The notes below the pieces were generated by a model. The model searched no databases, was not told the origin of the DNA, and saw nothing but the letters and a program-made list of their open reading frames with translations. Shown piece after piece: positions 4,808 through 64,000 of a DNA stretch of 64,000 nucleotides. Location: contig OZ024742.1 in assembly GCA_964016885.1 (NCBI GenBank), positions 343,604,001 to 343,668,000 on the forward strand. Reading direction: 5' to 3'. Source of the stretch: Eledone cirrhosa (Eukaryota). Within the stretch, counting starts at the first letter, position 1. Every line of letters begins with the position of its first letter. The position numbers were made by a program, and so were the translations under genes.

Positions 4808-6504
4808 TTGCATGACAATATTAATACCACAAACAAAGACACAACAAACACAAAAATAACATTTGAAAACAACATCATAACAGAAAGCAAAGCAGACGAC
4901 AAAGTCAACACCAATAATATTTCATTTGCACAAACAACAAAGAAATCTTTGACATATATACCTGAAAATATTTCAGATGTGGCACAAAGAATTAAAAACG
5001 CCAAACAATACATAACTCAAGGGGAAAATGGTATTTTATCGGTAAAAATGCCTCAAGAACTCACCAAAGACATTGAAAGTCGGACGGTCGTTTTCCGCGT
5101 CATCAACAACATTTCTAAAAAACCTCAACAACCAACACAAACAGAAATCAAAGCAGTACTTACAGAAGTACTTAATGAAACCACTTTCATAAGAAGAGAC
5201 AGACTGTATGGAAGCCTAGCGATTATTATGAAGAACGAATCGGCGGCAAAAAAAATGTGCTTTGTCGCCGATTCGTTCGACAAATTTTACCTTTTATCCA
5301 TCTTATATGGGTAAAAGAACTCAGCGCATATGGCTGGATGCGATGATGCCAGATGTGGACTACTGCTGGCTCATAGCTGGCTTCATCGATCCAGCGAATG
5401 ACAACGTGATTTCCATTGGGAAAACCACAGGCAATGCGTTCAGTGGAACAGGTATAGAACTTGTAGTGCAAATGAAGCCTGAACGCATTGCCCAAATACC
5501 CGACAGAATCCTATTAGAGGGCCACGGGTATATACAAATTAGCGTAGAGGGGAGAAGGCCGTCCTGTCATATCTGTGCATGCAGGCAGAGGGAACCTGAA
5601 GGCGGCTTGTCCCCAACTCAACAAGAAGAAAACCCTGCTACCAACACCAGGTCCACCACCATCACAACAGATAAACAAACAACAAAACTCAGTCCCACCC
5701 AACCCGTCCCTCAGTAAAACTACACCACCACCACCACAACACAAACAGTCACAACACATTACCCCAAAACAAAACACAGTCCCACCCAACCCCTCACTCA
5801 ATAAAACAACACAACCACCGCAGCCACAACACACAACACAGTCTAACATAGTGACATCCATCTCCCCCACAAAGAAAACCAACACGGAAACATTACCAGC
5901 AAACATACCTCTTCTCTCCAACACTGAAGATAACCCAACGAATTCGGAGGAAGAAACGGAGTCCTTCAGACAGATTAAAAGGAAAAAAAGAAAACATGTG
6001 CAAAACACACAAGGCCAAACAACCCCTACCCAAATATCAACACAATCCAACAAAACACAAAACAACCCTCCAGCAACAAACAAAACCAAACCTGCCACTC
6101 CCCTCTTCGAAACACTCACACAATCCGAAAAAAAGACATTACACTATACTTACATCAACAGAAACAATAATAAATTAAATGAACTCATAAACAATAACCC
6201 TTCGGTACAAACCGAAGGTGTAAACTTTGTTTCTTCAGAAAACTACCCACATTTAAAATTAATAAAGATCCCAATGAACCTCTACCAAAAACTAAAAAAG
6301 GATTTTAAGGAGGACGTAGGACCACCCTCTGTCAAACCCATAAACCGCGTCCTACTAAAAAGCTTTCCCCTCCCCAACACAACTCCAAACACCCCAACCC
6401 CACCACACACTGACGACACCACACCACCACAAGACACCCCTTCACCCAACACCCCCGACCCCATGGAAGTCGTGCGACCCGAACCCCGGGAAGCGGAAAG
6501 GTAG
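4808..6504 (+). pseudogene. Tx1 ORF1 (gag-like), frameshifted
   Basis: Three overlapping ORFs (4808-5314, 5262-5717, 5575-6504) with a CCHC-like knuckle followed by a Pro/Thr/Gln-rich tail. Confidence 0.75.
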
Positions 6505-10529: not shown

Positions 10530-11460
10530 CATAGGTTGACATTATCAAGCCATCGTTTTGGCTGCCGGCCTCTGCTTCTCTTACCAACCAACCTTCCTTC
10601 CAGGCATAACCTACTCACACCACGAGTTGATCTTTTTATATGGCCGTATATTTTGAGTACTCTTGACTTGACAATTGATGTAATTGGTCTAAGTTTGGTA
10701 ATGTTGAGCAGCTCAGTGATACAGATACGGTCGCTGAGCGGCTCACTGATACAGATATGGTCGCCGAGCAGCTCACTGATACAGATACGGTCGTTGAGCC
10801 GCTCACTGATACAAATATGGTCGCTGGGCAGCTCACTGATACAGATACGGTCGCTGAGCAGCTCACTGATACAGATACGGTCGCTGAGCAGTTCACTGAT
10901 TCAGATACAGTCGCTGAGCCGCTCACTGATGCAGATACGGTCGCTAAGCCGCTCACTGATACAGATATGGTCGCTGCTGAGTCACTCACTGATACAGATA
11001 GGGTCGCTGATACAGATATCATCGCTGAGCAGTTCACTGATACAGATATGGTCGCTGAGCAGCTCACTCATACAGATATGGTCGCTGAGCAGCTAACTGA
11101 TACAGATACGGTCGCTGAGCCGCTCACTGATACAGATATGGTCGCTGGGCAGCTCACTGATACAGATACGGTCGCTGAGCCGCTCACTGATACAGATATG
11201 GTCGCTGAGCAGCTCACTGATACAGATACGGTCGCTGAACCGCTCACTGATACAGATACGGTCGCTGAGCCGCTCACTGATACAGATACGGTCACTGAGT
11301 CGCTCACTGATACAGATACGGTTGCTGAGCCGCTTGCTGATACAGATACGGTCGCTGAGCCGCTCACTGATAGAGATACGGTCGCTGAGCCGCTTGCCAG
11401 TCATAAGTCTCATGATGTGGTTCTGGAATGTAGAGAGCTTCTGAAGTAACTTTGTCGTCC
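10530..11460 (-). mobile_element. RTE-clade LINE fragment (post-RT region) interrupted by an internal minisatellite
   Basis: Minus strand reads TTKLLQKLSTFQNHIMRLMTGKRLSDRI...[repeat]...LSDRICITELLNITKLRPITSIVKSRVLKIYGHIKRS...LEGRLVGKRSRGRQPKRWLDNV, a typical RTE C-terminal segment. Confidence 0.85.
10713..11397. repeat. 30-bp minisatellite, about 23 units (gctcactgatacagatacggtcgctgagcc)
   Basis: Direct tandem periodicity; translates as (LSDRICISER)n on the minus strand and (TDTDTVAEPL)n on the plus strand. Confidence 0.95.
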
Positions 11461-11960: not shown

Positions 11961-12047
11961 GATCCTCGTCACTAAATACCAGGATCAGCGTCTTACTGAT
12001 TGAATTACTGGTACTCATTTTACTCAAATCTACGTGGCGGATGTGAC

Positions 12048-12350
12048 GGCGTGTGGCTTTGTGGTCAGGGAATTTAGCTCACGAACCCAAAGTCGTGAGT
12101 TCGATTCCCTGCGGTGCGCTGTGTCCTTGAGTAAGACACTTTATTTCACGTTGCTCCAGTTCACTTAGCTGGCAAAAATGCGTCAGCCTTGTCACATTCT
12201 GTGTCACGCCGAATCTCCCTGAGAATTACGTTAAGGGTACGTGTGTTTGTGGAATGCTCAGCCACTTTCACGTTAATTTCACGAAAGGCTGTTCCATTGA
12301 TTGGATCAACTGGAACACTCGTCGTCGTAACCGACGGAGTGCCTTCCATG
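12048..12350 (+). mobile_element. tRNA-derived SINE (second family); inverted copy at about 27360-27632
   Basis: Pol III A box (tggctttgtgg) and B box (gagttcgattcc), followed by the central motif gtgtccttgagtaagacactt seen in V/Meta-type SINEs. Confidence 0.75.
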
Positions 12351-12521
12351 ATTCCACGTGCTGGCTGTCCCTTTGGTCCAACAATCGGAACACTGTGTTC
12401 CAACCCATGCTTATACACTTATACAGCCCCCTAAGAAGACGGGTGTAAATTCAATGATGTTCATTTCTTTGCATTATCGATACCGATGATGATTGATTCA
12501 TAGCAAGAAATCAATACTTAC

Positions 12522-12607
12522 TAATCACAATGTTTAAGACAGTAGTAATAATCAATGATAAAGATCCAATTGAGAAATGACACACAAGCGTCCTTTTTCG
12601 CCCGAAC
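12522..12607 (-). CDS. SLC22-like transporter internal exon (about TM9): (W)FGRKRTLVCHFSIGSLSLIITTVLNIVI
   Basis: Polypyrimidine-cag acceptor and gtaagt donor; second MFS GRK motif; phase fits the 14841-14975 exon (TG|G). Confidence 0.85.
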
Positions 12608-12739
12608 CTGTTGTGGATAGAAAGGGAGATTTTGAAAGGTAACTTTGAATTGAAAATAAAATGATGTTTATACATCTCTCTCTCTCTCTACACACACATA
12701 TCTATCTCTACCTCCCTCTCTCTCTCTATATATATATAT

Positions 12740-12930
12740 AATTGTTTCTACTTTTGGCACAAGGCCAGCAATTAACCAGTGCATTACTGGTACTTATTTT
12801 ATCGACCCCGTAAGGATGAAAGGCAAAGTTAACCTCGGCGGGATTTCAACTCAGATCATACAGGGAGGTAACTCTATGCTTCAAAGCATGGCGTCCGACT
12901 CTCTACCGATACTGGCAATCCACCGCAGTA
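12740..12930 (-). mobile_element. tRNA-derived SINE with Nin/Deu-like core (main family)
   Basis: Core gcctttcatccttacggggtcgataaa. Other copies at about 14590-14750, 15215-15380, 15990-16090, 24885-25072, 30100-30250, 31230-31400, 34790-34945, 39505-39610, 40840-41040, 41053-41237, 46355-46450, 52075-52165 and 54330-54400. Confidence 0.85.
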
Positions 12931-13014
12931 ATAATAATAAATTTGAAGACTAAAATCCAAAGAGGGCTCGATAAGGATAAATATATATCAAATATATAAG
13001 AACCGTAGAGCAAA

Positions 13015-13056
<42 letters not shown>

Positions 13057-13084
13057 CTAGAAGTGAATTGCATCCCTGTATGCC

Positions 13085-13164
<80 letters not shown>

Positions 13165-13167
<3 letters not shown>

Positions 13168-13432
13168 GAGGTTATATTTAATTTGTTGGGATTCAACAAG
13201 CTTAAAATGTTTATAACTGATATAAAGCACTCAACAGATAAGTGGAGTAAATACACAATACATTAATTAATGGAAACTATATTTATAAAACCATATTTAT
13301 TTTATTATACATATTTCAAGGGCCACCAAGGGAAATTATGGTGCGCTTTCATCAGATAAAATACAGATTTGTTTTATGAATAAATATTGACATACCCGGA
13401 AAAAAAGACAACCTTAACGGTTGGAACTTCCT

Positions 13433-13435
<3 letters not shown>
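13165..13435 (-). mobile_element. Solo Penelope pseudo-LTR between (TA)n tracts
   Basis: Homologous to 20865-21125 and 27040-27235; contains the hammerhead motif. Confidence 0.75.
13298..13363 (-). ncRNA. Minimal type I hammerhead ribozyme (Penelope type)
   Basis: Minus strand: tattttat-CTGATGA-aagcgcacca...tggtggccctt-GAAA-tatgta-TA-ataaaata; stems I and II pair. Confidence 0.8.
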
Positions 13436-13471
<36 letters not shown>

Positions 13472-13738
13472 GCATACAGGGATGCAATTCACTTCTAGCA
13501 CTCAACGCCATATTCCTAAGATCAGGGGTGACGGAATATATTAATAAAGATGGAAATGCGAAGTTGAAGATGTTAGATTCCTCTATTAATTGAGCCGTTA
13601 TACATATTTCAATGACGATAAACATCGTATCTCTTCAGACAGCAAAAATTGATTAAAATTTATGAGGCAATTTTATGTGGAAGGGATGGACTAAAAAAAA
13701 ATGTGTTTTTGCTTTGGTTGTCCGCCCCCTTCTTAAAT

Positions 13739-13802
<64 letters not shown>

Positions 13803-13806
<4 letters not shown>

Positions 13807-13954
13807 ATATAGAAATGTCTTCTACAGGACTAGAACTGTTTCATTGGAAGGAAATCATATTATGGACTGTATCTCACAACAGGGCTTTGCTTTCCTGATG
13901 ATTTCCTTCGAATGAAAACAGTTCTACTCCTGAAGAAGTCATTTCTATATTAAA
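13803..13954. repeat. Imperfect inverted repeat (about 56-bp arms) whose loop is a copy of exon sequence
   Basis: Arms 13803-13858 and 13898-13954; 13854-13884 is the exact reverse complement of 14930-14960. Confidence 0.9.
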
Positions 13955-14026
13955 CATTTTTACTCTGCTATGTATTGAGTTCCTAACTTACTGTGGTTAC
14001 CCCCGATTGAATCCGGGATTCACACT

Positions 14027-14070
<44 letters not shown>

Positions 14071-14840
14071 CATTTTGTATTTGTTTTGCAAGATTTCTCA
14101 TCTGAAAATGTGTTTTCTCTCCTTTGTTCTGAGACACAAAATGACAACAAAGATAGTCACCGAGGAGGTCACAGAATGTGTGACAAAAGAGCTTTGACAA
14201 TCAACAACTAAACAACCATCTGGTTATTAAACTAACGGACTAGGAGTTTATAATAAATTGAAGAAAAATCTAACAGGTACCTGTGTTTTTATTGGCAGCA
14301 GGACCCCCTCCCCTCGTATAACTACATACATGTATATAAATATATAAACGCTTAACTTAAGAAGTATTGGGAAACTTTGAAATTTGTAATATAGTCATCC
14401 AAACACAAAATACTATAATAATAATCAATAACAATTAAAATGGCCGAGAAAACCTCGTAAAGTACCCCAGGAAAATGGGATAAAGGCACCTAATAATGGG
14501 ATAATCTGCACCTCTCTGATACCGGGCGAGTGAATTTAACCTTTACGCTAAAGAGCTGCTGGCCACTAATTTTGGGAGAAGGAAAAGTCGATAACATCTG
14601 TCCTTGTACTTGAATGGTGCTTTCTGTTATCGACTTCAGAAAGATGAAAGACAAAGTTGACCTCAGCAGGATTTAAACTCAGTATGTAAAGAACCGGAAC
14701 AAATACTGCTAAGCATTTCTCTGACTCTCTACCGACTCTGCCAAATCATGGTAAATAAAATAATGGCCTTGTTTGACACAAGTTTTTTAATAAACTACAA
14801 TGTGACATAATCAATGCAAAAATAATTATTTTGTACGCAC

Positions 14841-14975
14841 CATTCAAAGCCTTTCCATAAGGTAGACACGGCTAGGAACTCACATAAAGCGTTCATGAAA
14901 AAGTTGAAATAATGACTTCCTTCCAAAGACCCTGTTGTGAGATACAGTCCATAATATGATAGAGATGTCATGAAC
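14841..14975 (-). CDS. SLC22-like transporter internal exon (TM7-TM8): (W)FMTSLSYYGLYLTTGSLEGSHYFNFFMNALCEFLAVSTLWKGFE(W)
   Basis: ttcctctag acceptor and gtgcgt donor; SLC22 motifs YYG and NFF...E; phase 2 at both ends matches the neighbouring exons. Confidence 0.9.
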
Positions 14976-15416
14976 CTAGAGGAACAAATAAAGAGATTAT
15001 AGATTAAATGAGAGGTTTTATGATATAGCTATTGAATTGGAATGTTCCCGTAACTCCTGAAGGAGTCGTAGAGGCGCCATATTGACATACGGAGTCTCTA
15101 GTGCATTTTAAAACCTGGGGGAGCCCCATCTTCCTCCAGGTCTGAATACAGCAGATTTCTTTCAGAGAAGGATAGACAGTAAAAGAGAGGAAGTGAGAAA
15201 GAGATATAGAGGAAAAATCGAACCCAGTACTAGACTGGTACTTTTTTTATCGACCTCGAAAGGATGAAAGGCAAAGTTGACCTCAGCGGGATTTAATCTC
15301 AGGGAGTAGATAGTCGAAACGTATACCGCAAAGCATTCTATCCGACGTTCTAACGACTCTGGCAATTCGCCGCCTTCTACAATGAATTAGATATCTATAA
15401 AATAGTTAGAATAAAT

Positions 15417-15418
<2 letters not shown>

Positions 15419-15506
<88 letters not shown>

Positions 15507-15541
15507 AGAGAGAGAGAGAGGGCGAGAGAGAGGGTGAGAGA

Positions 15542-15586
<45 letters not shown>

Positions 15587-15782
15587 AGAGAGAGAGAGAG
15601 TGAGAGAGAGAGAGAGAGAGAAGGAGAGAGAGAGAGGGAGAGAGAGAGGAAGAGAGAGAGAGTGAGAGATGAAGAGAGAGAGAGAGGGCGAGAGAGAGGG
15701 TGAGAGAGTGTGTGTGTGAGAGAGAGAGAGAGAGAGCGAGAGAGGGTGAGAGAGTGTGTGTGTGAGAGAGAGAGAGAGAGAA
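15419..15782. repeat. (GA)n compound microsatellite
   Basis: Direct reading. Confidence 0.95.
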
Positions 15783-18047
15783 GGTAGGAACGGGTGGCCA
15801 AGAAAGCGAGACGAATTTAACTGTCACAAGTTTTGGACAGAAATGTAGGCTTTGGAGCAGAGAAAGTAGATTGTTTGAACATGACATAATTTGACCACCT
15901 CGTTAACATATGAATATTGGATAGAGGTAGATTAATGTCTGACACATTATCAAATTGAAGGTGTCAAAGTAAAATAACATTAATTAATATCGGTTGACTT
16001 TGCCTTTCATCTTTACGGGGTCGATAAAATAAAGTACCAGTAATGCACTGGGTAATTGCTGGCCTTGTGCCTAAAGTAGAAACAATTAATTAATATCCGC
16101 TGCCGGATTTGGATTTGGTAAGGTCTTAAACAATTTAAAGTTTGGTGGACTTTTGAAAAAAACAGCACAACGTTTGAAAGCAAACCTTCATATAGGAGTA
16201 TCTTCCTAATTTCATTTTATTTAACGTCTATCTTTTCATTGTCCGCGGGGCACAGACCCAACACCACCGCGCCCTAGGCCAATATCCCCTCCCCTCCCCA
16301 TCTCCCTCCCTTTTTTCTCTGCCCCAGAGTCCTTGCCTCTCCCCTCTTTTTCCTCTCATTTATGGCTTTCATGGTCCTTTACTCTACTTTCCCATACAGT
16401 CAGATCTGCCCTTCTTTACCCCTTCCCATGTTCTCATTGCTAGATTTTGCTTTTGTCTTTCTTTCTCATATTTATTTATCTTTTCAATTAATTATGACTT
16501 GTCGAAAATATCACTCGTATTTATTTACATTTGAAATTATATTTTGTAAAATATCTGAGATTTAGCGAGACAATATATCTTTCAAAATGTCGCCTCATTG
16601 GATGTCATTTAATTTTCATATTGTCTTCCAGAATAAAATGGTTCCTCACCCTTGCTCCAAGCTCTAGCTTGCTAAGCTTATCTCTAAATTCGCCACTATG
16701 ACCATTTCTTTGACAAGTACGATGGAATTATTCCCTTCTTAACAAATACCAATTTAGTGTTAAATGGATTGGGCTTCTTGAGAGATAATTATTGTGATTA
16801 CAGACACAATGCACTGCTGGTAACACGAGTCACGTATGGAACCTCTACACGGGCGCTTAACATTTTAGAAATGGCCTCCACATTTCTCTTAATCCCAAGA
16901 GCATAATCTTTTTAAAAAAGAAAGCTACAGTTAACGTAGTCCCAGGCATCAAAACGAAAGGGTGATATAATAACCTTAGATCATATGTCTGTCTGTTCGA
17001 ACCAAGTTTAAACCTGGACAAAGTAACAAAATCAGAGTGACCGAGGAGAAGATACGAACCGCTATGCTTTCTCTGCTGGTTATCTATTACCCTATCAACT
17101 GGGCTATATCGGCGAGTAACATGCTGGCTGATTCTTACAAACTTAATGATTCAATCAAATGGTATTTGTAGTTTCATAGATTTGCTCAATCTAGACAGAT
17201 GTAGAAATAAATAACAACAACAACAAATAGGTTTTAAAATCTGTTGATGGATTTAAACGACACAGTGCAATACACGAGAGTATACTTAGCATAAATAAAA
17301 ACTAAGGTTGTAATTGAAAATCACGTATCACTTGATAGTATGTACCATGCTTTCGCTGAGAGTTTTAGACGTCCATGCAGACACATACACACTCTTGTAC
17401 CTCTCTCCGTTGATCCAACAGAACAACCAAGATGTGACAGCTAGAAGTAGAAAGGACGGCATAAGCAATGGATTGGTACTTTCTTTATCAACCTCAAAAA
17501 TATGTAAAGCAAATTGGGTCTCGGTGGGATTTGAACTCGGGGAAACTATTCATCGCTCTAACAGCTCTGCCAAATCGACTGCCACTACAACCTCATATGC
17601 TTATACGTAGCTTTGTTTGTAAGATCTACCAAAAGACATGTAGGAGTTAGGGGAGAAGGCTTAAACAACTGCCATAGAAAACATGGTTGTTGTTGCTGTT
17701 GTCCTTGTTTAACGCCAGACTAGTTCTGTTTAAGATGGTCTATCAATCTATGATCAAGTATTCCAGCCATAGCCATCCCATGTTATTTTTTAAAGCGTTA
17801 TCTTGGATTACATTATGTAATGTGTCCTTCCACTTTTGATACGGTAATGTGTAGTTTTAGGAAAATTCATTTGGTATTTTTAGCGGATCCGGTGACGCCG
17901 TAGTGACATGCAATTTAGGATAGCTGTACATAAAGATAAAGTTAAAGGAAATACAAAACAGATAAACACATGTATTATCTCAAATAAAGTGAGCAGTTTA
18001 AGTAAGTAACCGAACAATATCGAATATAATGTTGTGCAATATTGTAA

Positions 18048-18559: not shown

Positions 18560-21550
18560 GGAATATTATAAATTAAACATAGTTCTGAACGTGGAATTTT
18601 GGCGATGTCTGCAAGAGAAAATAACTCTGTTCTGGATTAATAGAGTTTTGCCAGTTAATTATATAAAAAAATTCTTCGTTACACAATTTACAGAATCTTG
18701 ATAAAGCCATATTGCAGTAAGCAGGTGCTTTCGAAATCGTTTTCCAAGATATTGAATAGTCTGTATTATTGCCTTTTAAGTTCCATATAAGATGTGAAAG
18801 TGAAGTAGGAGATTTTTTATCAGATCTTTTAAATGTATGATTATGGTTATTCCAGCGTTCTTTAAATTTTGTAGAAGTGGCACCAACTTAGTTAAATATT
18901 TTATCTTTAGTTTTAACTGTGCATTTATAAACTACGTTTTTATCTAAACAATTATTTTGTAAAGGGCAGTTTGATTTGATTCTACAGTTACATTTTATGG
19001 AGTTGTTGTTGCTCGGAACGGTACTATTATACTGAATATTGCTAGAAATATTATTATTGTTATTTTGGTTATTTTGGTTAGGGTTTAAATTTAAGTTTCT
19101 ATTATTAATTCTATTTATATTTTGTGCTATGTTCATAGTAGTAGAGTAGGATAGTTTTATAGTATGTCTGTTAAAAATAGAGTGGTATCTGTAGGCTTTA
19201 GGAAAACATTTATCTAGTGCTTTAAAGAATAGCTTCGATAAAGGTGTTTTAACGCTTAATGAGAATGGAGGAGGGGGGACCAAATAATATTTCTAGTTCT
19301 TGTTTTGATGTTGGGTTTAGTGTTTAAGTTAAATTGTTTATTATTATTATAATTAATACTAGGATGATTTGCCATGTTATTGTTATCAATGTATTTAATT
19401 TTATTCGAATATCCTGATCTATGTAAAGCTTCATTATAATATTCAGCCTTATCATCAACAATATTTTTATTAGCAGAGATGCGTGAAATCCGTTGTTGGA
19501 CACTATTTACAATAATGTTTTTAATACTTCTAGGATGATTAGAGTTAAAACTTACGTAATTTAGATTTTCGTTAATTTTATGGAAAGGATAGTAAAGAAC
19601 TGTGCTAAGGTTTAAGGTTACATCTAAGAAGTTAACGATTTTGTAGTTATTCTCTATTTCTAACTTAAGGTTGTAGTTATTAAAGTATTGTATTATGAAT
19701 TTCCTATTAATTTCACAATTGCTATGGTTTTCAATTAAAAGCAGCATATCGTCACGATATAAACCACCGGTCATCTCTGGCATTTTTCTATGCAGTACGT
19801 TATTAATAAATAAACCAACGAGATCCGTTATTTGCGCCGATTCAGATGATCCCATAGTGATATCAAAATTGTTTTTTCTGTTGGCTCTTGTCCAGAGATG
19901 ATTATTGAATTCTATTAGGGTTTTACGTGCTGTTAGAATTGTATTCATTTCATCACTAGATAGATCTGTATGTTTAGACGCGTAGATAAGAGCCTTATTA
20001 AGTAAACTAGGAGTAATAGAGGAGTAGTAATTTGCAATATCCATTTGAATACATTTTTTGTTATGTTTTAATGTTATGCTATTGAACCAATCTATAACTT
20101 CGTTAGTACCGTTCCATAGTTTAAGGTGTGATTTTTCTTTAAGTTGTGATATAATTCTATCTAATAAATGTTTGCTAATTATGCCAAAGTCTGATTTAGA
20201 TGGTGCTATGAGTCTGACTGGTAGTTCTATTTCAAAATTTCTTTTGTGGTCTTTCAGGTTAATTTTCGGTTTTCTAGGTATAAAGGGTTCAGTCCTATTT
20301 TGGATACCTAATTTATGAATAATTTCAGAAGTCTCTCTATTTAACGTTGAAAGATCTTCATTTGATGTTATTTTGTAGTTTTTTTTCAGAGTTCTTTCAA
20401 TATTAGGTTATTATATTCGTCCTTTTCCATCCCATATAAATTATTAGTTTTATCAGATTTTACGAGGATCTTCTTAGTTTTTTCAAGATTGTCTATTTTA
20501 TTCTTGAGGCCTTTAAGGTACTCCTGGCCTATAAATTGTTTTTTTTTTAAATTTAATGTTTTGTATAATAGATATTACTTCATTCTCAAATTCGGCAAGT
20601 AGTTTGCTGTTAGGTGGATTCTTCTTAGATTTGAAGATGAGATCAAAGTTGTAACTGGATTTATTTATTTTTTCATCCGATTTTCTATCGAAATGAAAGG
20701 CACGCCATCTAAGTCTCGTATAAAGGAGTCAGATTTCTCAATGAGTTGTTTTAGATATTCCTTATTTTTAGGTAAGGTACATCCTTTAGAGAAGAAGAAA
20801 TCCTAAAGAATTCCATTATTTTGCAATCAGTTATATTTTAAAGTGCTCAACATTAAAGGAGCTATTTATAAGCTGAAGGGATATTCAATTTGTTGGTAAT
20901 TCAACAAATATAAATGTTTATAACTGATTCAGAGCGCTCGACAGTTTTTCTGGAGTATAATATTCAATGAAATTAAATAAATGGAAAATATATTTATTCT
21001 ATTATATATATTTCAAGGGTACCAAAAACTTTGGTACGCTTTCATCAGATAAAATACAAAGTGTGTTTTATAAATTTTGACATAATCAAGGAACATATCT
21101 TAACGGTTGAAGTTTTCCTTGGATAGTGGAGTTAAAGACAGATTTTTTCAAAAATGTTAAGATGAGTATGCAAATGAATATGTAAATGAGGTTCGGGTAT
21201 AGGTTTGAAAAAACGTTATTGTAGACGCTATGGAGAATTTAGATATGTGTTTGTATGGGTAGGAAAGAAAGAAAAAAGAAAAAGAAAAAAGAAAAAGAAA
21301 AAAGAAAAGAAGACCTCGTATTTACGTTAATTTTGTGGAAAAAATTTGAATATTTACCTATATTATGTATATACTTATATGGAGAATTATGTTTGTAAGT
21401 ATTTATCTTATTACAATATTGTAGTAGGTTATATGTATAAATATCTGTATATATTAATAATCGCATATGTATTAGTATAGAGTGCTCTGAATCAGTTATA
21501 AACATTTATATTTGTTGAATTACCAACAAATTGAATATCCCTTCTGCTTA
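18560..21550 (-). mobile_element. Penelope-like element (RT + GIY-YIG), decayed, with 5' pLTR and inverted partial pLTR
   Basis: MDIANYYSSI, TMGSSESA, GLYRDDM, VNFLDVTL, SNHP, CNCR..CPL...C, VVYKC...VGATSTKFKERW. 20870-20940 is inverted at 21480-21550. Confidence 0.92.
20995..21056 (-). ncRNA. Minimal type I hammerhead ribozyme in Penelope pLTR
   Basis: Minus strand: tattttat-CTGATGA-aagcgtacca-aagtttt-tggtaccctt-GAAA-tatata-TA-atagaata. Confidence 0.82.
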
Positions 21551-23807: not shown

Positions 23808-26800
23808 CTTGACTGGTATGTCTGCTTCAAAATTTCTTTTATGGTCTTTGATATTTATTTGCGGTTGCCTTGGTATAAAGGATTCGGTCCTACGCTCAAT
23901 TCCTAATTTGGTGATAATTTCAAAAGCTTCGTTGTTTATGGTTGATAGATCTTCTTTACAGATGTTTTTTTATTCTTTCAGTATTAAATTATTATACTCT
24001 TCTATCAAGGCTTATAGTACCTTTTAAATCCGATCTCGGAATTATTAGTAAAAGTATACTTGACAAAATTATACTAATACTTAAACAAAAATCACATTTC
24101 AAACTTTGGAACGGTACAAATGAAGTAATAGATTGCTTTGTAAACATTAAATCTAAAAATAATACTAAATTTATACAAATGAATATTGCTAATTATTATT
24201 CTTCCATAACTCCTAATTTACTTAATAAAGCACTAATATACGCATCAAAGCATACTGACTTATCTAGCGAAGAAATAAACATTATATTAACTGCACGAAA
24301 AACTCTTATTGAATTTAATAACGATCTCTGGACTAGAGCTGATAGACCGAAGAATTTTGATATTACGATGGGTTCTTCGGACTCAGCTCGGGTTACAGAC
24401 CTCTTTGGCATCTTCATTCTTAACTCTTTACTTAGGAAATTGCCGGAAATTGCCGGAGGTTTGTATCGCGACGATGCATTATTCATAGTAGATAAATATA
24501 ACAATAGTGAACTTAACAGGAAAAAGAAAATTATTATAGGCTTCTTTAATAATTACGACCTTAAGTTAGAAATAGAAAACAATAATAAAATAGTTAATTT
24601 CTTAGATGTTACATTAAACCTTAACTCAGGCCTATATTATCCATTCCTTAAGATTAATAAAACCTAAATTATGTCAGCTTCTACTCAATCCACACTAAAA
24701 ACGTTAAAAAAGATATAGTCAATAGTGTCCAGCAAAGAATCTCTAGACTCTCAGCTAATAAAAATATAGTTGATAACAAAACAGAATATTATAATGACGC
24801 TCTACACAGAGCTGGATACACTAATAACATTAATTACATAGATAAGAATAGTAAAACCCAACCTCTTAAAGTATATTATAATAATAATTGCTTCTACTTT
24901 TTGGCACAAGGCCAGCAATTATTCCAGTGTATTACTGGTACTTTATATTATCGACTCCGTAAGGATGAAAGGCAAAGTTAACCTCGGCGGGATTTGAACT
25001 CAGTCCGTATAGGGACGTAACTGTGCTGCAAAGCATGGCGTCCGACCCTCTACCGATACTGCCAATCCACCATGAATATAAACCACTTAATCAAAATAAG
25101 AAATCAAATAGAAAAGCCAGAACTAGAACTATAATTTGGTATTCACCCCCAGTATCCTTAGGAATTAGGGCACCTTTAGCACACCAATTCTTTAAAGCTC
25201 TAGATAAATGTTTTGCTAAGTCCCACAAGTATCACTCCATTTTTAACAGATATACAATCAAGCTCTCTTACTCTACAACTATGAATGTAACCCAGAATAT
25301 AACAAGAATTAATAATAGGAATTTAGAATTAAACCAAACTGAAGTAAACCCATATAATAATAACAATAGCTTTACGAATAATAGCGCTTACATGAATAAT
25401 AATACGGTATCTTCAAGTAACAATATAAAAGAATGTAATTGCAAGAATAACATCTTATGCCCTTTACAGAATAATTGCCTAGATAGAAATTTAGTATATA
25501 AATGCACCATTAAAACTAAGGATAAGCTGTATAACTATATAGGAGCAACTTCATCAAAATTTAAGGAGCGTTGGTATAATCACAAACATACTTTTAAACG
25601 GTCGGATAAAAAATTCTCAACTTCACTGTTACAACTAATTTGGTCTTTAAAAGACAATAAAACTGACTATTCAATCTCTTGGAGAAAAATTACGAACGCT
25701 CCAGTTTACCAAAATTCGGCATTCTCAGGAATTTGTCATCTTTGTATTGAAGAAATATTTCATATAATTACCAATCCTGGTAATATTATAAAAAAAGGAA
25801 ATATTTAATTCCTGTTTGCACCGTTTCTCCAAGACATTTCACAATGTTTATAATTTATAGAACCTACTATATTATGATCTATATAAGTTGCCTATTTACA
25901 ATATGAATATAAATCCTTTTAAACCTAATACATAGAAACATTTCTTATACAATGTAAAAACCTATTATCAAAACCATATTTAGTATATGGTGCTCTGAAA
26001 TCTTATATAAATTATTTACTTATAATATAAATAATAATTAATAATTATGGTAAACATTAGATGAAACAATATATTATTAAATGTTTATCGTAAGCACACC
26101 TGTAACACATTACTTAAAATACATAATCTAGAGTTACTTCCTCTTTTTTTGTTTACACCGTCAAAATTCATATATACGATATATTTCAACTTACACAACT
26201 GTTTAAATATTATATTACTAACCATATACAATAATAGATTATACTATAATACTGTACATGTTTACTTAAGAAATATAATTAGTTTCACATTCTTAAAATA
26301 TATGTAAAAAATACATATCTATAGGTACTTGATCTCTCTTACGTTTATTTATAGATCTATGTATATATACATAAATGCGATGTATATTCACGCATAATCA
26401 CATATGTACTGAATAATTATTTATTATTTTAATTAACGATATACAGTAATGGCTTATAATATACTACAATACATTATATTTCTCATGTAAACATTATAGT
26501 TACATTTATAGTATTAAAATATATGCTAAAAAATAAATACACTCATATATAAATCTATGTATATATATATATGTGTGTAAATACGATGTACATTCTATCA
26601 CATAACCACATAAGTATTGAATTGTAATTACTTTAACTAACCATATAGAATAATAGCTTACAATATACTACAATAGATTACATTTCTCATGTAAACATTA
26701 TAAATACATCCACATTCTTAAAATATATATTTAAAATAAATACGTATAATTATGTGATTCCTTCCAAACTTATGTATATATCTTTGCGAGTATATGTCTA

Positions 26801-37172: not shown

Positions 37173-37376
37173 GGGTCTGCGATAACAGGTCTGTGATGCC
37201 CTTAGATGTCCGGGGCCGCACGCGCGCTACACTGGAGGTATCAGCGGGCGCCACTCCCCCGGCCCGAGAGGGTCGGGAAACCTCTGAACCACCTCCCGTG
37301 ATAGGGATCGGGGCCTGGAACCAACCCCGTGAACGAGGAATTCCCGGTAAGCGCGGGTCATCAGCCCGCGTCGATC

Positions 37377-37419
<43 letters not shown>

Positions 37420-37620
37420 CGAACGGTCCGGTAAGGTCCTCGGATCTGGCCGACGAGTTCGCAGGCCGTGCGGCGGCGTTTCGAGTCGGCCGTCAGGTCG
37501 GTTCGTTGCCGTCGTCGGTGCGCTCTCTGATGGCCCGGAGAAGACGACCGAACCCGATCGCTTAGAGGAAGTAAAAGTCGTAACAAGGTTACCGTAGGTG
37601 AACCTGCGGAAGGATCATTA
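37173..37620 (+). rRNA. 18S rRNA 3'-terminal fragment (about 450 nt), pseudogenic insert
   Basis: Universal motifs ataacaggtctgtgatgcccttagatg, ccctgccctttgtacacaccgcccgtcgct and gtaaaagtcgtaacaaggtt.ccgtaggtgaacctgcggaaggatcatta. Confidence 0.97.
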
Positions 37621-37975
37621 CCGCGTATCTATCGTTTATCGTTTATCGCCGCCGCCGCCGCCAACGAAAGCCGCCTTTTTTTCGTTGATCTTCGGTGATC
37701 ACGACAACAACGGTCGGGTTCGTCATCTGCCGCCGCCTAGCGGACGGCGTAACCCGTTAAATGGAGCGAGCGCCGTTTGCGAAATCGCCGCCAACATCGC
37801 TTACTTCGCGTCTACCGCCGCCTAACCGCTCCTACCGTTTTTTTTCTCTTTTTCTTTCGAAAGAAGGAAAAATTAAAAGAAATCTTTTGCCGGCGCCAGC
37901 ACGGCGCTCGGCCGATAACATCGCGCATCGTTCGATTTCGTATCCGAAAGAACGTTTTTTTCGACGTGCGCTTCT
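37621..37975 (+). other. Probable ITS1 5' part contiguous with the 18S fragment
   Basis: GC/CpG-rich non-coding sequence directly after ggatcatta; no 5.8S reached. Confidence 0.75.
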
Positions 37976-51678: not shown

Positions 51679-51736
51679 CTGATTTGAAAAGAGAACAATT
51701 TCGAAATTGAGTAATTGGGTAATGACCGAAAGAATA

Positions 51737-53712: not shown

Positions 53713-54677
53713 GTAAGAGTGTCAGACACCATGAGTTGCGGCCCTTTACGGTCTGAGTTAAGACAATTAAAAATCTTTACCACCATCAATTGTTAAAAAC
53801 AAGTTAAAATCATGTAGTCGTCCATTCATAACGTACGTTACGCTTTAGTTACATACACACACATCTACAGGTAAATACATAAACAGATGCAGACAACAGA
53901 AGTGCAAACCCACACGTACATCTACTCATACATATTCATAAATATACACATTATAGAAAATAATTATTACATACCCACACATCGATGTAATGATTGAAAA
54001 AGGGGCTGGTGAAAGGCGATAGCGATATGTGTGTTGGGTCTCTTTAGGGTTACAGGCTACATAGCCTATTCCTATTATACATTGGGACAACTTTATCCCA
54101 GTAGTATCCACATTCTTCAATATGATTAACAATAACAATAAAAATATGAAAAATAATTACTTATTACTACATTATGATAAATATTGGAAAAAAGAATTCA
54201 GCAGAATGTAAACTTTGTTTTGGGATATCTATATCACAATGGAGGAGGAAAATTAGGGAGAGGTGTGGGTACACTGTATCGAATGTTTTGTGATATTCGT
54301 CCCAGCTTTCTGCGCCGTAAGATCATATCCAACTGAGGTTGCCTTTCCCTTTCATCCTTCCAAGGTCGATAAAAGAAGTACCGGTTTAGTATCGGGATCG
54401 ATTCTTTTTTTATATCACTTTCCAAACACCCCCCACACACTCTGAAAGAACTTGGCTGTGCGCTCCATCAGGTTTAAAATGCCCAAGATACGCAGTATGT
54501 CCCTATGATGCTCCTTAATTTCTATCAGGAGTTACGGATCCATATATACCAGAACATCTTAAAAAGTGTTAAGGGAAAGAATAAAAACTTGCGTTGTCAT
54601 TTCCAAAGGGACATAAATGAAGTGAAGTGAAGTGGTTTCAAGTGGAAGAGTAAGAAAAAGGTGTGTGGCAAAGTAGG

Positions 54678-57600
54678 ATATAGACACAGTATGATGTGAT
54701 ATACAGAGATAAAATCACAGTATGGTGTAATATAATGGGATACACCCACAGTATGGTGTGAAAAACTAGGATATAGTCAAAGTATAGTGTGATAAACTGA
54801 GATACACTCACAGTATGGTGTGGTGTTCTGAGATACAGTCACAGTATGGTGTGATATACTGAGATACAGTCACAGTATAGTGTGATAAACTGAGATACAC
54901 TCACAGTATGGTGTGAGATACTGAGATACACTCACAGTATGGTGTGATAAATTAGGATATAGTTACAGTATGGTGTTAATCACTGAGATACAGTCACAGT
55001 ATGGTGTGATATAGTGAGATACACCCACAGTATGGTGTGATATACTGAGATACAGTCACAGTATGGTGTGATATACTGAGATACTGTCACAGTATGGTGT
55101 GATATACTGAGATACAGTCACAGTATGGTGTGGTATACTGAGATACTGTCACAGTATGGTGTGGTACACTGAGATACAGTCACAGTATGGTGTGATATAC
55201 TGAGATACAGTCACAGTATGGTGTGGTATACTGAGATTCTGTCACAGTATGGTGTGATATACTGAGATACTGTCACAGTATGGTATGGTATACTGAGATA
55301 CAGTCACAGTATGGTGTGATATACTGAGATACAGTCACAGTATGGTGTAGTATACTGAGATACAGTCACAGTATGGTATGATATACTGAGATACACCCAC
55401 AGTATGGTGTGGTATACTGAGATACAGTCACAGTATGGTGTGGTATACTGAGATACAGTCACAGTATGGTGTGGTATACTGAGATAACGCCACAGTATGG
55501 TGTGGTATACTGAGATAGAGTCACAGTATGGTGTGGTATACTGAGATACAGTCACAGTATAGTGTGGTATACTGAGATACAGTCACAGTATGGTATGATA
55601 TACTGAGATACAGTCACAGTATGGTATGATATACTGAGATACACCCACAGTATGGTGTGGTATACTGAGATACAGTCACAGTATGGTGTGGTATACTGAG
55701 ATACAGTCACAGTATGGTGTGGTATACTGAGATAACCCCACAGTATGGTGTGGTATACTGAGATAGAGTCAGAGTATGGTGTGGTATACTGAGATACAGT
55801 CACAGTATGGTGTGGTATACTGAGATACAGTCACAGTATGGTGTGGTATACTGAGATAACCCCACAGTATGGTGTGATATACTGAGATACAGTCACAGTA
55901 TGGTGTGGTATACTGAGATACAGTCACAGTATGGTGTGGTATACTGAGATACAGTCACAGTATGGTGTGGTATACTGAGATACAGTCACAGTATGGTGTG
56001 GTATACTGAGATACAGTCACAGTATGGTATGATATACTGACATACACCCACAGTATGATGTGGTATACTGAGATAGTCACAGTATGGTGTGGTATACTGA
56101 GATACAGTCACATTATGGTGTGATATACTGAGATACAGTCACAGTATGGTATGATATACTGACATACACCCACAGTATGGTGTGGTATACTGAGATAGTC
56201 ACAGTATGGTGTGGTATACTGAGATACAGTCACAGTATGGTGTGGTATACTGAGATACAGTCACAGTATGGTGTGGTATACTGAGATACAGTCACAGTAT
56301 GGTGTGGTATACTGAGATACAGTCACACTATGGTGTGATATACTGAGATACAGTCACAGTATGGTATGATATACTGAGATACAGTCACAGTATGGTATGT
56401 TATACTGAGATACACCCACAGTATAGTGTGGTATACTGAGATACAGTCACAGTATGGTGTGGTATACTGAGATACAGTCACAGTATGGTGTGGTATACTG
56501 AGATAACCCCACAGTATGGTGTGATATACTAAGATACAGTCACAGTATGGTGTGATATACTGTGATACAGTCACAGTATGGTGTGGTATACTGAGATACA
56601 GTCACAGTATGGTGTGGTATACTGAGATAACCCCACAGTATGGTGTGATATACTGAGATACAGTCACAGTATGGTGTGGTATACTGAGATACAGTCACAG
56701 GATTGTGTGATATACAGAGATACAGTCAGAGTATGGTGTGATATACTGAGATACAGTCACAGTATGGTGTGGTATACTGAGATACAGTCACAGTATGGTG
56801 TGGTATACTGAGATACAGTCACAGTATGGTGTGGTATACTGAGATACAGGCACAGTATGGTGTGGTATACTGAGATAACCCCACAGTATGGTGTGATATA
56901 CTGAGATACAGTCACAGTATGGTGTGGTATACTGAGATACAGTCACAGTATGGTGTGGTATACTGAGATACAGTCACAGTATGGTGTGGTATACTGAGAT
57001 ACAGTCACAGTATGGTGTGGTATACTGAGATAACCCCACAGTATGGTGTGATATACTGAGATACAGTCACAGTATGGTGTGGTATACTGAGATACAGTCA
57101 CAGTATGGTGTGGTATACTGAGATACAGTCACAGTATGGTGTGGTATACTGAGATACAGTCACAGTATGGTGTGGTATACTGAGATAACCCCACAGTATG
57201 GTGTGATATACTGAGATACAGTCACAGTATGCTGTGGTATACTGAGATACAGTCACAGTATGGTGTGGTATACTGAGATACAGTCACAGTATGGTGTGGT
57301 ATACTGAGATACAGTCACAGTATGGTGTGGTATACTGAGATAACCCCACAGTATGGTGTGATATACTGAGATACAGTCACAGTATGGTGTGGTATACTGA
57401 GATACAGTCACAGTATGGTGTGGTACACTGAGATACAGTCACAGTATGGTGTGGTATACTGAGATACAGTCACAGTATGGTGTGATATACTGAGATACAG
57501 TCACAGTATGGTGTGGTATACTGAGATACAGTCACAGTATGGTATGATATACTGACATACACCCACAGTATGATGTGGTATACTGAGATAGTCACAGTAT

Positions 57601-60600
57601 GGTGTGGTATACTGAGATACAGTCACAGTATGGTGTGGTATACTGAGATACAGTCACAGTATGGTGTGGTATACTGAGATACTGTCACAGTATGGTGTGG
57701 TATACTGAGATACAGTCACAGTATGGTGTGATATACTGAGATACAGTCACAGTATGGTATGATATACTGAGATACACCCACAGTATGGTGTGGTATACTG
57801 AGATACAGTCACAGTATGGTGTGGTATACTGAGATACAGTCACAGTATGGTGTGGTATACTAAGATAACCCCACAGTATGGTGTGATATACTAAGATACA
57901 GTCACAGTATGGTGTGATATACTGTGATACAGTCACAGTATGGTGTGGTATACTGAGATACAGTCACAGTATGGTGTGGTATACTGAGATAACCCCACAG
58001 TATGGTGTGATATACTGAGATACAGTCACAGTATGGTGTGGTATACTGAGATACAGTCACAGGATTGTGTGATATACAGAGATACAGTCACAGTATGGTG
58101 TGGTATACTGAGATACAGTCACAGTATGGTGTGATATACTGAGATACAGTCACAGAATGGTGTGAGATACTGAGATACAGTCACAGTATGGTGTGATATA
58201 CTGTGATACAGTCACAGTATGGTGTGGTACACTGAGATACACTCACAGTATGGTGTGATATACTGAGATACAGTCACAGTAAGGTGTGCTATACTGAGAT
58301 ACACCCACAGTATGATGTGGTACACTGAGATACAGTCACAGTATGGTGTGGTATACTGAGATACAGTCACAGTATGGTGTGGTATACTGAGATACAGTCA
58401 CAGTATGGTGTGATATACTGAGATACAGTCACAGTATGGTGTGGTATACTGAGATACAGTCACAGTATGGTATGATATACTGACATACACCCACAGTATG
58501 ATGTGGTATACTGAGATAGTCACAGTATGGTGTGGTATACTGAGATACAGTCACAGTATGGTGTGGTATACTGAGATACAGTCACAGTATGGTGTGGTAT
58601 ACTGAGATACAGTCACAGTATGGTGTGGTATACTGAGATACTGTCACAGTATGGTGTGGTATACTGAGATACAGTCACAGTATGGTGTGATATACTGAGA
58701 TACAGTCACAGTATGGTATGATATACTGAGATACAGTCACAGTATGGTATGATATACTGAGATACACCCACAGTATGGTGTGGTATACTGAGATACAGTC
58801 ACAGTATGGTGTGGTATACTGAGATACAGTCACAGTATGGTGTGGTATACTAAGATAACCCCACAGTATGGTGTGATATACTAAGATACAGTCACAGTAT
58901 GGTGTGATATACTGTGATACAGTCACAGTATGGTGTGGTATACTGAGATACAGTCACAGTATGGTGTGGTATACTGAGATAACCCCACAGTATGGTGTGA
59001 TATACTGAGATACAGTCACAGTATGGTGTGGTATACTGAGATACAGTCACAGGATTGTGTGATATACAGAGATACAGTCACAGTATGGTGTGGTATACTG
59101 AGATACAGTCACAGTATGGTGTGATATACTGAGATACAGTCACAGAATGGTGTGAGATACTGAGATACAGTCACAGTATGGTGTGATATACTGAGATACA
59201 GTCACAGTATGGTGTGGTACACTGAGATACACTCACAGTATGGTGTGATATACTGAGATACAGTCACAGTAAGGTGTGCTATACTGAGATACACCCACAG
59301 TATGGTGTGGTACACTGAGATACAGTCACAGTATGGTGTGGTATACTGAGATACAGTCACAGTATGGTGTGGTATACTGAGATACAGTCACAGTATGGTG
59401 TGGTATACTGAGATACAATCACAGTATGGTGTGAGATACTGAGATACAGTCACAGTATGGTGTGGTATACTGAGATACAGTCACAGTATGGTGTGAGATA
59501 CTGAGATACAGTCACAGTATGGTGTGATATACTGAGATACAGTCACAGTATGGTGTGGTACACTGAGATACACTCACAGTATGGTGTAGTACACTGAGAT
59601 ACAGTCACAGTATGGTGTGAGATACTGTGATACAGTCACAGTATGGTGTGATATACTGAGATACACCCACAGTATGGTGTGATATATTGAGACACAGTCA
59701 CAGTATGGTATGATATACTGAGATACACCCACAGTATGGTGTGATATACTGAGATACACCCACAGTATGGTGTCGTATACTGAGATACAGTGATAGTATG
59801 GTGTGGTTTACTGAGATACAGTCACAGTAAGGTGTGATATACTGATATACACCCACAGTATTGTATGGTATACTGAGATACAGTCACAGTATGGTGTGAT
59901 ATACTGAGATACAGTCACAGTATGGTGTGGTATACTGAGATACAGTCACAGTATGGTGTGATATACTGAGATACAGTCACAGTATGGTGTGGTATACTGA
60001 GATACAGTCACAGTATGGTGAGATATACTGAGATACAGTGATAGTATGGTGTGGCTTATTGAGATACAGTCACAGTAAGGTGTGGTTTACTGAGATACAG
60101 TCACAGTATGGTGTGGTATACTGAGATACAGTCACAGTATGGTGTGGTATACTGAGATACAGTCACATTACGGTGTGATAAACTAAGATATAGTTACAGT
60201 ATGGTGTTAATCACTGAGATACACTCACAGTATTGTGTGATATACTGAGATACACCCACAGTATGGTGTGGTATACTGAGATACACTCACAGTATGGTGT
60301 TAGATACTGAGATACACTCACAGTATGATGTGATATACTGAGATACACTCACAGTATGGTGTGGTATACTGAGATACAGTCACAGAATGGTGTCGTATTC
60401 TGAGATACAGTCACAGTATGAAGTGGTATACTGAGATACCCCCACAGTAGGGTGTGATATACTGAGATACAGTCACAGTATGGTGTAATATACTGAGATT
60501 CAGTCACAGTATGGTGTGAGATACTGAGATACAGTCACAGTATGGTGTGGTATACTGAGATACAGTCACAGTATGGTGTGGTACACTGAGATACAGTCAC

Positions 60601-63600: not shown

Positions 63601-64000
63601 TACACCCACAGTATGGTGTGGTAGACTGAGATACAGTCACAGTAAGGTGTGATATACTGAGATACAGTCACAGTCTGGTGTGATATACTGAGATACACCC
63701 ACAGTATGGTGTGGTATACTGAGAAACAGTCACAGTATGGTGTGGTACACTGAGATACAGTCACAGTATCGTGTGATATATTGAGATACAGTTAGAATAT
63801 GGTGTGGTATACTAAGATACAGTCACAGTATGGTGTGATATACTGAGATACACCCAGAGTATTGTATGGTATACTGAGATACAGTCACAGTATGGTTTGA
63901 TATACTGAGATACAGTCACAGTATGGTGTGGTTTACTGAGATACAGTCTCAGTATGGTGTGTTATACTGAGATACAGTTACAGTATGGTGTGGTACACTG
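54678..64000. repeat. 31-bp tandem satellite (tactgagatacagtcacagtatggtgtggta), about 300 units, runs past the window end
   Basis: Direct periodicity, a degenerate left edge and recurring variant blocks. Confidence 0.98.

Follow-up and report, generated by a model that had tools for sequence, protein, structure and literature searches.

EN+ Penelope-like elements (PLEs) are described as carrying inverted, 5'-truncated pLTR copies, junction palindromes, a 30–40-bp tail and a type I hammerhead (PMC8557442, PMC3846280, PMC11167929), and the formation of their inverted 5' junction is presented as an open problem (PMC8557442, PMC11167929). The hairpin repeat family analysed here resembles these elements in several ways: a truncated copy is inverted head to head, an extension occurs on one side only, the layout of a hammerhead is present, and the targets are simple repeats. 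No ORF is linked to the family, however. Its traits also match those of Penelope-like elements as given in a retrozyme preprint (10.64898/2026.07.22.740005). For squid, the sections of PMC6962438 drawn on here give only hammerhead counts. The PLE reports, in the parts used here, describe host-DNA spacers of 0.9–1.5 kb and gene capture, whereas the centres of the hairpin family hold 27–77-nt copies of DNA from 0.3–2.4 kb away, positioned at the centre of the inversion. Searches of the open-access literature yielded no account of short, locally derived inserts in the inversion centres of PLEs.

Partial parallels exist for such junctions. In the 'snap-back' and 'extra template' 5' junction classes of R2 PRINT, the 3' end of the R2 cDNA finds its priming site either within the cDNA or in target DNA close by before it is joined, and noncoding RNA can be fused at the junction (PMC11371274). 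The hairpin family is comparable in these respects; R2 PRINT is engineered and uses one rDNA site, whereas the hairpins are natural germline copies in which a single junction unites a fold-back arm with a foreign insert. Templated insertions of L1 also copy non-element genomic DNA into a retroelement insertion, but their templates typically lie within 15 bp of the site, in contrast to the 0.27–2.4 kb that separates the hairpin-family inserts from their donors (10.1101/2024.08.27.596794, PMC11702581). Pol theta (MMEJ) insertions likewise show microhomology at both ends, patchwork or iterative junctions and a template in the flank, and are usually under 25 bp (PMC12426944). The hairpin-family inserts (27–77 nt) and donor distances (0.3–2.4 kb) exceed these typical values, which counts against a templated insertion from nearby DNA.

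The locus lies in a window of 64,000 nt from Eledone cirrhosa (the window denotes this whole stretch of analysed DNA) within an SLC22 organic-ion transporter gene. A tblastn search with the SLC22 proteins of Octopus bimaculoides and Argonauta hians yielded nine exon blocks, in order and on the minus strand, that extend from position 51679 to some 10 kb beyond the window's left edge. A 77-aa upstream exon matches the SLC22 proteins of O. bimaculoides (83%) and A. hians (74%), which marks the genome as octopod-like. The coding exon at 14841–14975 (135 nt, minus strand; translation starting FMTSLSYYGLYLTTG...) covers TM7-8. Its product exhibits 78–80% identity to octopod SLC22 proteins, and the YYGLYLT segment is unchanged in two orthologues. 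The next coding exon (FGRKRTL...; 12522–12607, minus strand) follows after a 2,233-nt intron (12608–14840, minus strand) that holds the element. The 44-aa donor exon alone gave no match in a homology search and no Pfam family. A PDB search with the same exon returned three weak matches (E 0.11–0.38), all of them SLC22, and aligned the first Tyr of the YYG motif with OCT1 Y361, which we take to be a substrate-binding residue. The same intron contains a second inverted repeat (13051–13120 and 13435–13504; 70 nt including a TA run, 97% complementary, 314 nt apart) that belongs to another repeat family and is a further source of dsRNA.

In this intron, positions 13854–13884 are an exact 31-nt reverse complement of exon positions 14930–14960, which is the maximal exact inverted match, and a gapped extension (13854–13889 against 14924–14960) matches at 36 of 37 positions with one base skipped. 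The inverted exon copy is real. A pattern search of the whole 3.0-Gb genome, allowing at most one mismatch, located the 31-mer at two places, 13854–13884 and 14930–14960 (control, 0), and the 31-mer is thus not part of the repeat consensus. The donor segment inside the exon (14924–14960, minus strand) comprises codons L-S-Y-Y-G-L-Y-L-T-T-G-S-L, and the templated insert (13854–13889, plus strand) is the reverse complement of 14924–14960 and reads as mRNA sense on the plus strand. The copy is thus antisense in the SLC22 pre-mRNA, where it is located 951–986 nt into the intron. These results agree with the first-pass annotation of this DNA, which had described a 31-nt exact inverted match, extending to 36 nt with one gap, to the TM7 transporter segment SYYGLYLTTG, placed antisense about 1 kb into the intron after the exon.

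The insert is enclosed by a hairpin that follows a (TA)n tract (13742–13802), the likely insertion target. The left arm (13803–13858, minus strand) is an inverted, truncated copy of the right-hand repeat segment. The right arm (13889–13954, plus strand) displays a minimal type I hammerhead layout with CTGATGA at 13895–13901 and GAAA at 13914–13917. Pairing between 13803–13858 and 13899–13954 extends over 56 bp with four substitutions and one indel, so that the inverted repeat of ~56 bp after a (TA)n tract, with the exon copy as its loop, is present as first described. The family 3' extension, or tail (13955–14020, plus strand), occurs on one side only, with (CA)n and (TA)n beyond it as far as ~14070; both element ends at this locus fall in simple repeats. 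Only about 21 nt of the 31-mer are foreign to the repeat, because its first five bases are the repeat's own arm end and its last five fit a junction form present in other family copies. Both insert ends are microhomologies, and a 5-nt duplication follows the 31-mer at its junction. Chance alone would be expected to match these 21 bases about 1e-8 times in the surrounding ±5 kb. Moreover, the left-arm end (13844–13858) matches exon positions 14912–14926 at 14 of 15 bases (p = 0.003 against random stretches of the locus), a resemblance to the sequence adjoining the donor that had been pointed out earlier. This arm-like stretch (14912–14926, minus strand) matches the inner arm end, lies directly beside the donor and is the likely capture or priming site.

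The repeat family is large, with 1,977 first-look candidates, of which 40 were scored. Three pattern searches with slightly overlapping ranges detected 498, 153 and 97 long-centre hairpins. Family copies have the arms and the one-sided extension in common and differ in their centres; the arms vary in length around the variable centres and are arranged head-to-head at the 5' end. The extension spans ~60 nt and is mostly one-sided, compared with 30–40 bp in reported Penelope-like elements. Most copies abut TA or other simple repeats, as judged by inspection without a background rate. Longer copies reveal a linear parent of ~480 nt, in which no ORF was found, and the palindromes are therefore head-to-head truncated copies of the parent's 3' part. 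A CUGANGA/GAAA/UH core with three stems is present at the family level. The hammerhead core letters are kept in 43 of 56 tail-bearing units, and an alignment of 39 core-intact units plus the 13803–13954 copy pairs in 96.1% of its cells, values to be read with the extraction pattern itself fixing part of the motif. Loop II varies freely in this alignment, and one stem I column is compensatory, largely through one subfamily change. The degenerate hammerhead of the earlier description is thus sound in its layout at the family level; the core letters of the 13803–13954 copy are damaged, with A instead of the family T at 13933 and one extra A. An Rfam hammerhead search gave no match in window positions 12000–17000 or in L093 positions 4900–5200.

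The structural traits of the family make it likely that it is Penelope-like. A search of 60 loci around longer copies, using the PLE proteins of the window as the query, linked no autonomous RT/GIY-YIG parent to the family, which, like the absence of an Rfam match, counts against the Penelope-type reading. At L119, L125 and L138, RT or EN fragments are present alongside the repeat, with orientations that disagree, and a TA run lies in between in L125 and L138. The window itself contains two broken RT/GIY-YIG remnants (18573–20407, minus strand; 23918–25808, plus strand) that lack the 13803–13954 family repeat; they are identified as Penelope-like by their motifs and a weak RVT_1 match. The two ORF remnants and the hairpin family have no non-simple sequence in common. 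As a separate observation, arm-versus-arm mismatches in 61 family copies comprise 152 transitions, 120 A/T or C/G swaps and 81 other transversions, a tally that includes some flanking TA bases, and all four arm substitutions in the 13803–13954 hairpin are complement swaps.

Local inserts were also observed at other family copies. Every long centre was compared by alignment with the masked ±5 kb around it and, as a control, with 35–40 other flanks. The 77 copies tested comprise 41 chosen by centre length alone, including the 13803–13954 copy, and a further 20 and 16 chosen by eye, the 20 being drawn from 100 listed long-centre hairpins. A local donor outscored all 35–40 control flanks in nine of the 77 copies, a count that does not represent a rate because 36 of the 77 were picked by eye. 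The length-chosen copies contributed four clear donors (13803–13954 copy, L037, L048 and L067), the 20 by-eye copies three more (L078, L085 and L093) and the 16 by-eye copies two (L195 and L196). The nine inserts match their donors at 36/37, 36/41, 23/27, 46/55, 61/67, 39/47, 67/70, 77/77 and 65/68 positions. The donors are located 0.27–2.4 kb away, six in direct and three in inverted orientation, five on the tail side and four on the head side; inserts at copies other than the SLC22 one likewise occur in both orientations. No clear donor was found between 2.4 and 5 kb for any of the 77 copies. Short templated inserts at the inversion junction are thus a feature that recurs in the hairpin family.

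Several candidates were discarded. The L072 insert passed the flank test narrowly (28 vs 26) and was dropped because its centre is parent repeat sequence, the L052 insert was dropped because its score tied its null, and L077, L087 and L090 were set aside because their centres contain fragments of a common repeat for which no local donor stood out. When ten unexplained centres were extended to ±15 kb (null of nine loci), six misses and two ties were obtained, L076 gave a weak match ~13.8 kb away (34 vs 29), and L092 gave a marginal, low-complexity one; none was counted. The centres of L091, L086, L092, L194 and L070 are foreign and have no clear donor within ±15 kb, possibly reflecting distant or RNA templates. 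In general, the centres are mosaics in which parent sequence is mixed with short self-duplications and TA runs.

Of the eight donors besides the SLC22 exon, none was identified as exonic. Six of them were inspected and contain no exon-like frame, whereas for those of L195 and L196 the coverage consisted of an exon scan of low sensitivity. A home-made exon scan combined with Pfam on 84 picked candidates identified only the L037 gene as a host gene at the other donors. The suggestion that other hairpin centres might match flanking exons thus found one recognised case, the SLC22 exon, among nine local donors in 77 copies, and the idea that an exon donor is special or functional was not supported. 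The use of an exon as the donor is likely to be luck, because local inserts recur from donors not recognised as exons, and an occasional exon donor would be expected with hundreds of long centres. An arm-like stretch directly after the donor is present in two of the nine copies (13803–13954, p = 0.003; L085, p = 0.005) and absent in the other seven. Insert decay roughly tracks arm decay, with L067 as the exception: L078 combines 48 exact nucleotides with 0/51 arm mismatches, and L048 combines a 23/27 insert with 11/78 arm mismatches. This relationship favours formation at or near insertion. L078, L093, L195 and L196 are young subfamily copies with near-perfect arms and 48–77-nt near-exact local inserts and are the best suited to junction analysis; the L195 donor carries a short tandem duplication missing from its insert.

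With moderate confidence, the inverted exon copy is interpreted as a microhomology-primed templated insertion from nearby genomic DNA that occurred during a Penelope-type insertion and is presumably a neutral by-product. Synthesis would run from the tail through the hammerhead segment and stop early, leaving a free 3' end. This end would pair with the exon ~1.1 kb away, aided by the arm-like stretch with its 14/15 match, and copy 31–36 nt. Re-priming on its own strand via a 5-nt ATCAT match would then produce the inverted arm, which would be joined to the (TA)n target. The junctions are equally compatible with priming from the other arm, and the insert may have been made by the element RT or by Pol theta. 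The family traits, the 14/15 stretch and the junction microhomologies largely bear out the template switch of a Penelope-type hairpin onto the nearby exon that the first-pass annotation had put forward. The copying of flanking DNA with junction microhomology also corresponds to an MMEJ-type signature. Selection on the insert, considered on the basis of its 31/31 identity, was rejected as within neutral expectation: by our own estimate, ~1.3 changes are expected in 31 nt, given arms ~9% apart and a constrained donor, and the perfect identity is therefore unremarkable.

Two further copies bear on the nature of the template. L037 sits in an intron of a GLUT-type sugar transporter gene encoded on the minus strand (L170–L173 and L037; G000:C2:263.07–263.12 Mb), which is identified by Pfam Sugar_tr in two upstream exons and by motif in the downstream exon, and the intron with this copy carries a direct local insert. 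On the hammerhead strand, the L037 insert is antisense to the host pre-mRNA, which suggests a DNA template there if the first strand runs from the tail. As a direct repeat, it is unable to pair with its donor in the pre-mRNA. The centre of L089 (G000:C2:319598265–319598374) contains 61 nt of tRNA-Ala(AGC) with the genomic 3' trailer. This piece matches L163 at 60 of 61 positions, with A37>G as the sole difference (40 of 257 candidate tRNA copies scored), and no tRNA gene was found within ±15 kb of L089. Reads of precursor tRNA-Ala are reported to carry G37 (PMC4446420). The L089 insert looks RNA-templated, a hint that rests on one base; the copy may be a fossil of the reverse transcription of an edited pre-tRNA, with A37>G at the known I37 site.

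The main competing origin, which is considered unlikely, is that the element RT jumped from its own RNA to the nascent host pre-mRNA, copied 31–36 nt of the exon and snapped back. On the hammerhead/tail strand, the exon insert reads in the mRNA sense, the orientation needed for a first-strand jump, and it consequently fits either a DNA or an RNA template. The RNA-like L089 insert and the exon insert (13854–13889) are both RNA-sense on the hammerhead strand, which counts against copying from DNA, and R2 'extra template' junctions include noncoding RNA (PMC11371274). However, two sense cases have a chance of one in four, A37>G may be an ordinary transition given the 40 of 257 candidate tRNA copies scored, and the L037 insert is antisense to its host pre-mRNA. 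It is rather improbable that the palindrome inserted first and that its centre later broke through cruciform formation or replication stress, with end joining copying the flanking DNA. The hypervariable centres with iterative micro-duplications are consistent with such repair, all four side and orientation classes are present, as resected ends permit, and templated patchworks are a hallmark of Pol theta (PMC12426944). Nevertheless, the inserts are not younger than the arms, as insert–donor divergence equals or exceeds arm–arm divergence in L037, L048, L067, L085 and L093, and many centres contain parent or tail sequence, which indicates formation during insertion. An assembly or polishing artefact at the palindrome is extremely unlikely. 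Palindromes assemble poorly, and none of the contigs listed bridges the centre, but the insert exhibits a skipped base and microhomology junctions, and sister inserts diverge by up to 17% from their donors, unlike the product of an artefact.

Sites of the GRIA2 Q/R type use a downstream intronic editing-complementary sequence (ECS). The SLC22 locus resembles the GRIA2 Q/R ECS and the Gabra3 inducer stem (PMC3479170) in that a downstream intronic antisense coding copy is placed beside a long stem. Unlike the GRIA2 Q/R ECS, the SLC22 copy is perfect, lineage-specific, buried in the loop of a competing hairpin and known from sequence alone. Intronic sequence complementary to the exon is present in the same SLC22 pre-mRNA. 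It is improbable that the insert now functions as an ECS, with the 56-bp hairpin recruiting ADAR and with appreciable Tyr>Cys or Thr>Ala recoding in TM7 or altered splicing as the outcome. The perfect 31-bp exon–intron duplex has a predicted energy of −53.8 kcal/mol, and its predicted probability is about 1 when the transcript stops short of the second arm. Nested folding of 13803–14975, however, favours the local hairpin: the exon pair probability is 0.003 at 37 °C, and imposing the exon pairs carries a penalty of +5.0 kcal/mol at that temperature and of +8.3 to +9.6 kcal/mol at 20–12 °C. The exon–intron duplex envisaged in the first-pass annotation is accordingly predicted before the second arm is made and disfavoured in the complete nested fold. 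Leaving aside pseudoknot and threading penalties, an outer stem (−56.9) combined with a 26-bp loop duplex (−45.8) is more stable than the plain hairpin (−71.7 kcal/mol).

Intronic stems are able to induce nearby editing (PMC3479170), and coleoids edit heavily, but robust recoding is described as rare outside the squid nervous system, with repeats edited everywhere (PMC9068888). Because both orthologues retain the editable Tyr codons and the alignment pairs the first of these residues with OCT1 Y361, recoding would more likely be harmful. The equivalent inserts at other copies come from non-exonic DNA, which also argues against a function of the SLC22 insert in editing. The predicted dominant structure in the pre-mRNA is the 56-bp hairpin, which would be edited as ordinary intronic repeat dsRNA, and any exon editing would be transient and low. 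A wider proposal holds that Penelope-type insertions routinely write short copies, taken from DNA or RNA as far as 2.4 kb away, into the hairpin centre, that an upstream exon donor creates a one-event editing cassette consisting of a perfect ECS and a 56-bp ADAR-recruiting stem, and that the conserved YYG motif of the SLC22 transporter is recoded in this manner here. This proposal has little chance of being correct; if true, new recoding sites could arise in coleoids in a single step. No report of a retroelement-made ECS for coding sites was found in the open-access literature. Absent recoding, the SLC22 locus is a lucky member of a mostly junk class.

Under the preferred reading of a templated insertion from nearby DNA, the locus illustrates a concrete process that is able to put an antisense exon copy into an intron. 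The hairpin centres would record the junction-forming step of PLEs, with local copies in both orientations and an apparent pre-tRNA copy that bears an editing mark. They provide a genome-wide, countable handle on the use of DNA versus RNA templates and on the reach of the junction. The window contains additional repeats. A 30-nt minisatellite at 10705–11394 has long open frames on both strands. At 37227–37628, a stretch embedded in a LINE remnant has a translation like that of what is presumably the 3' end of 18S rRNA. Positions 54677–64000 are occupied by a 31-nt satellite array of about 301 copies with 89% matches, which runs past the window end.
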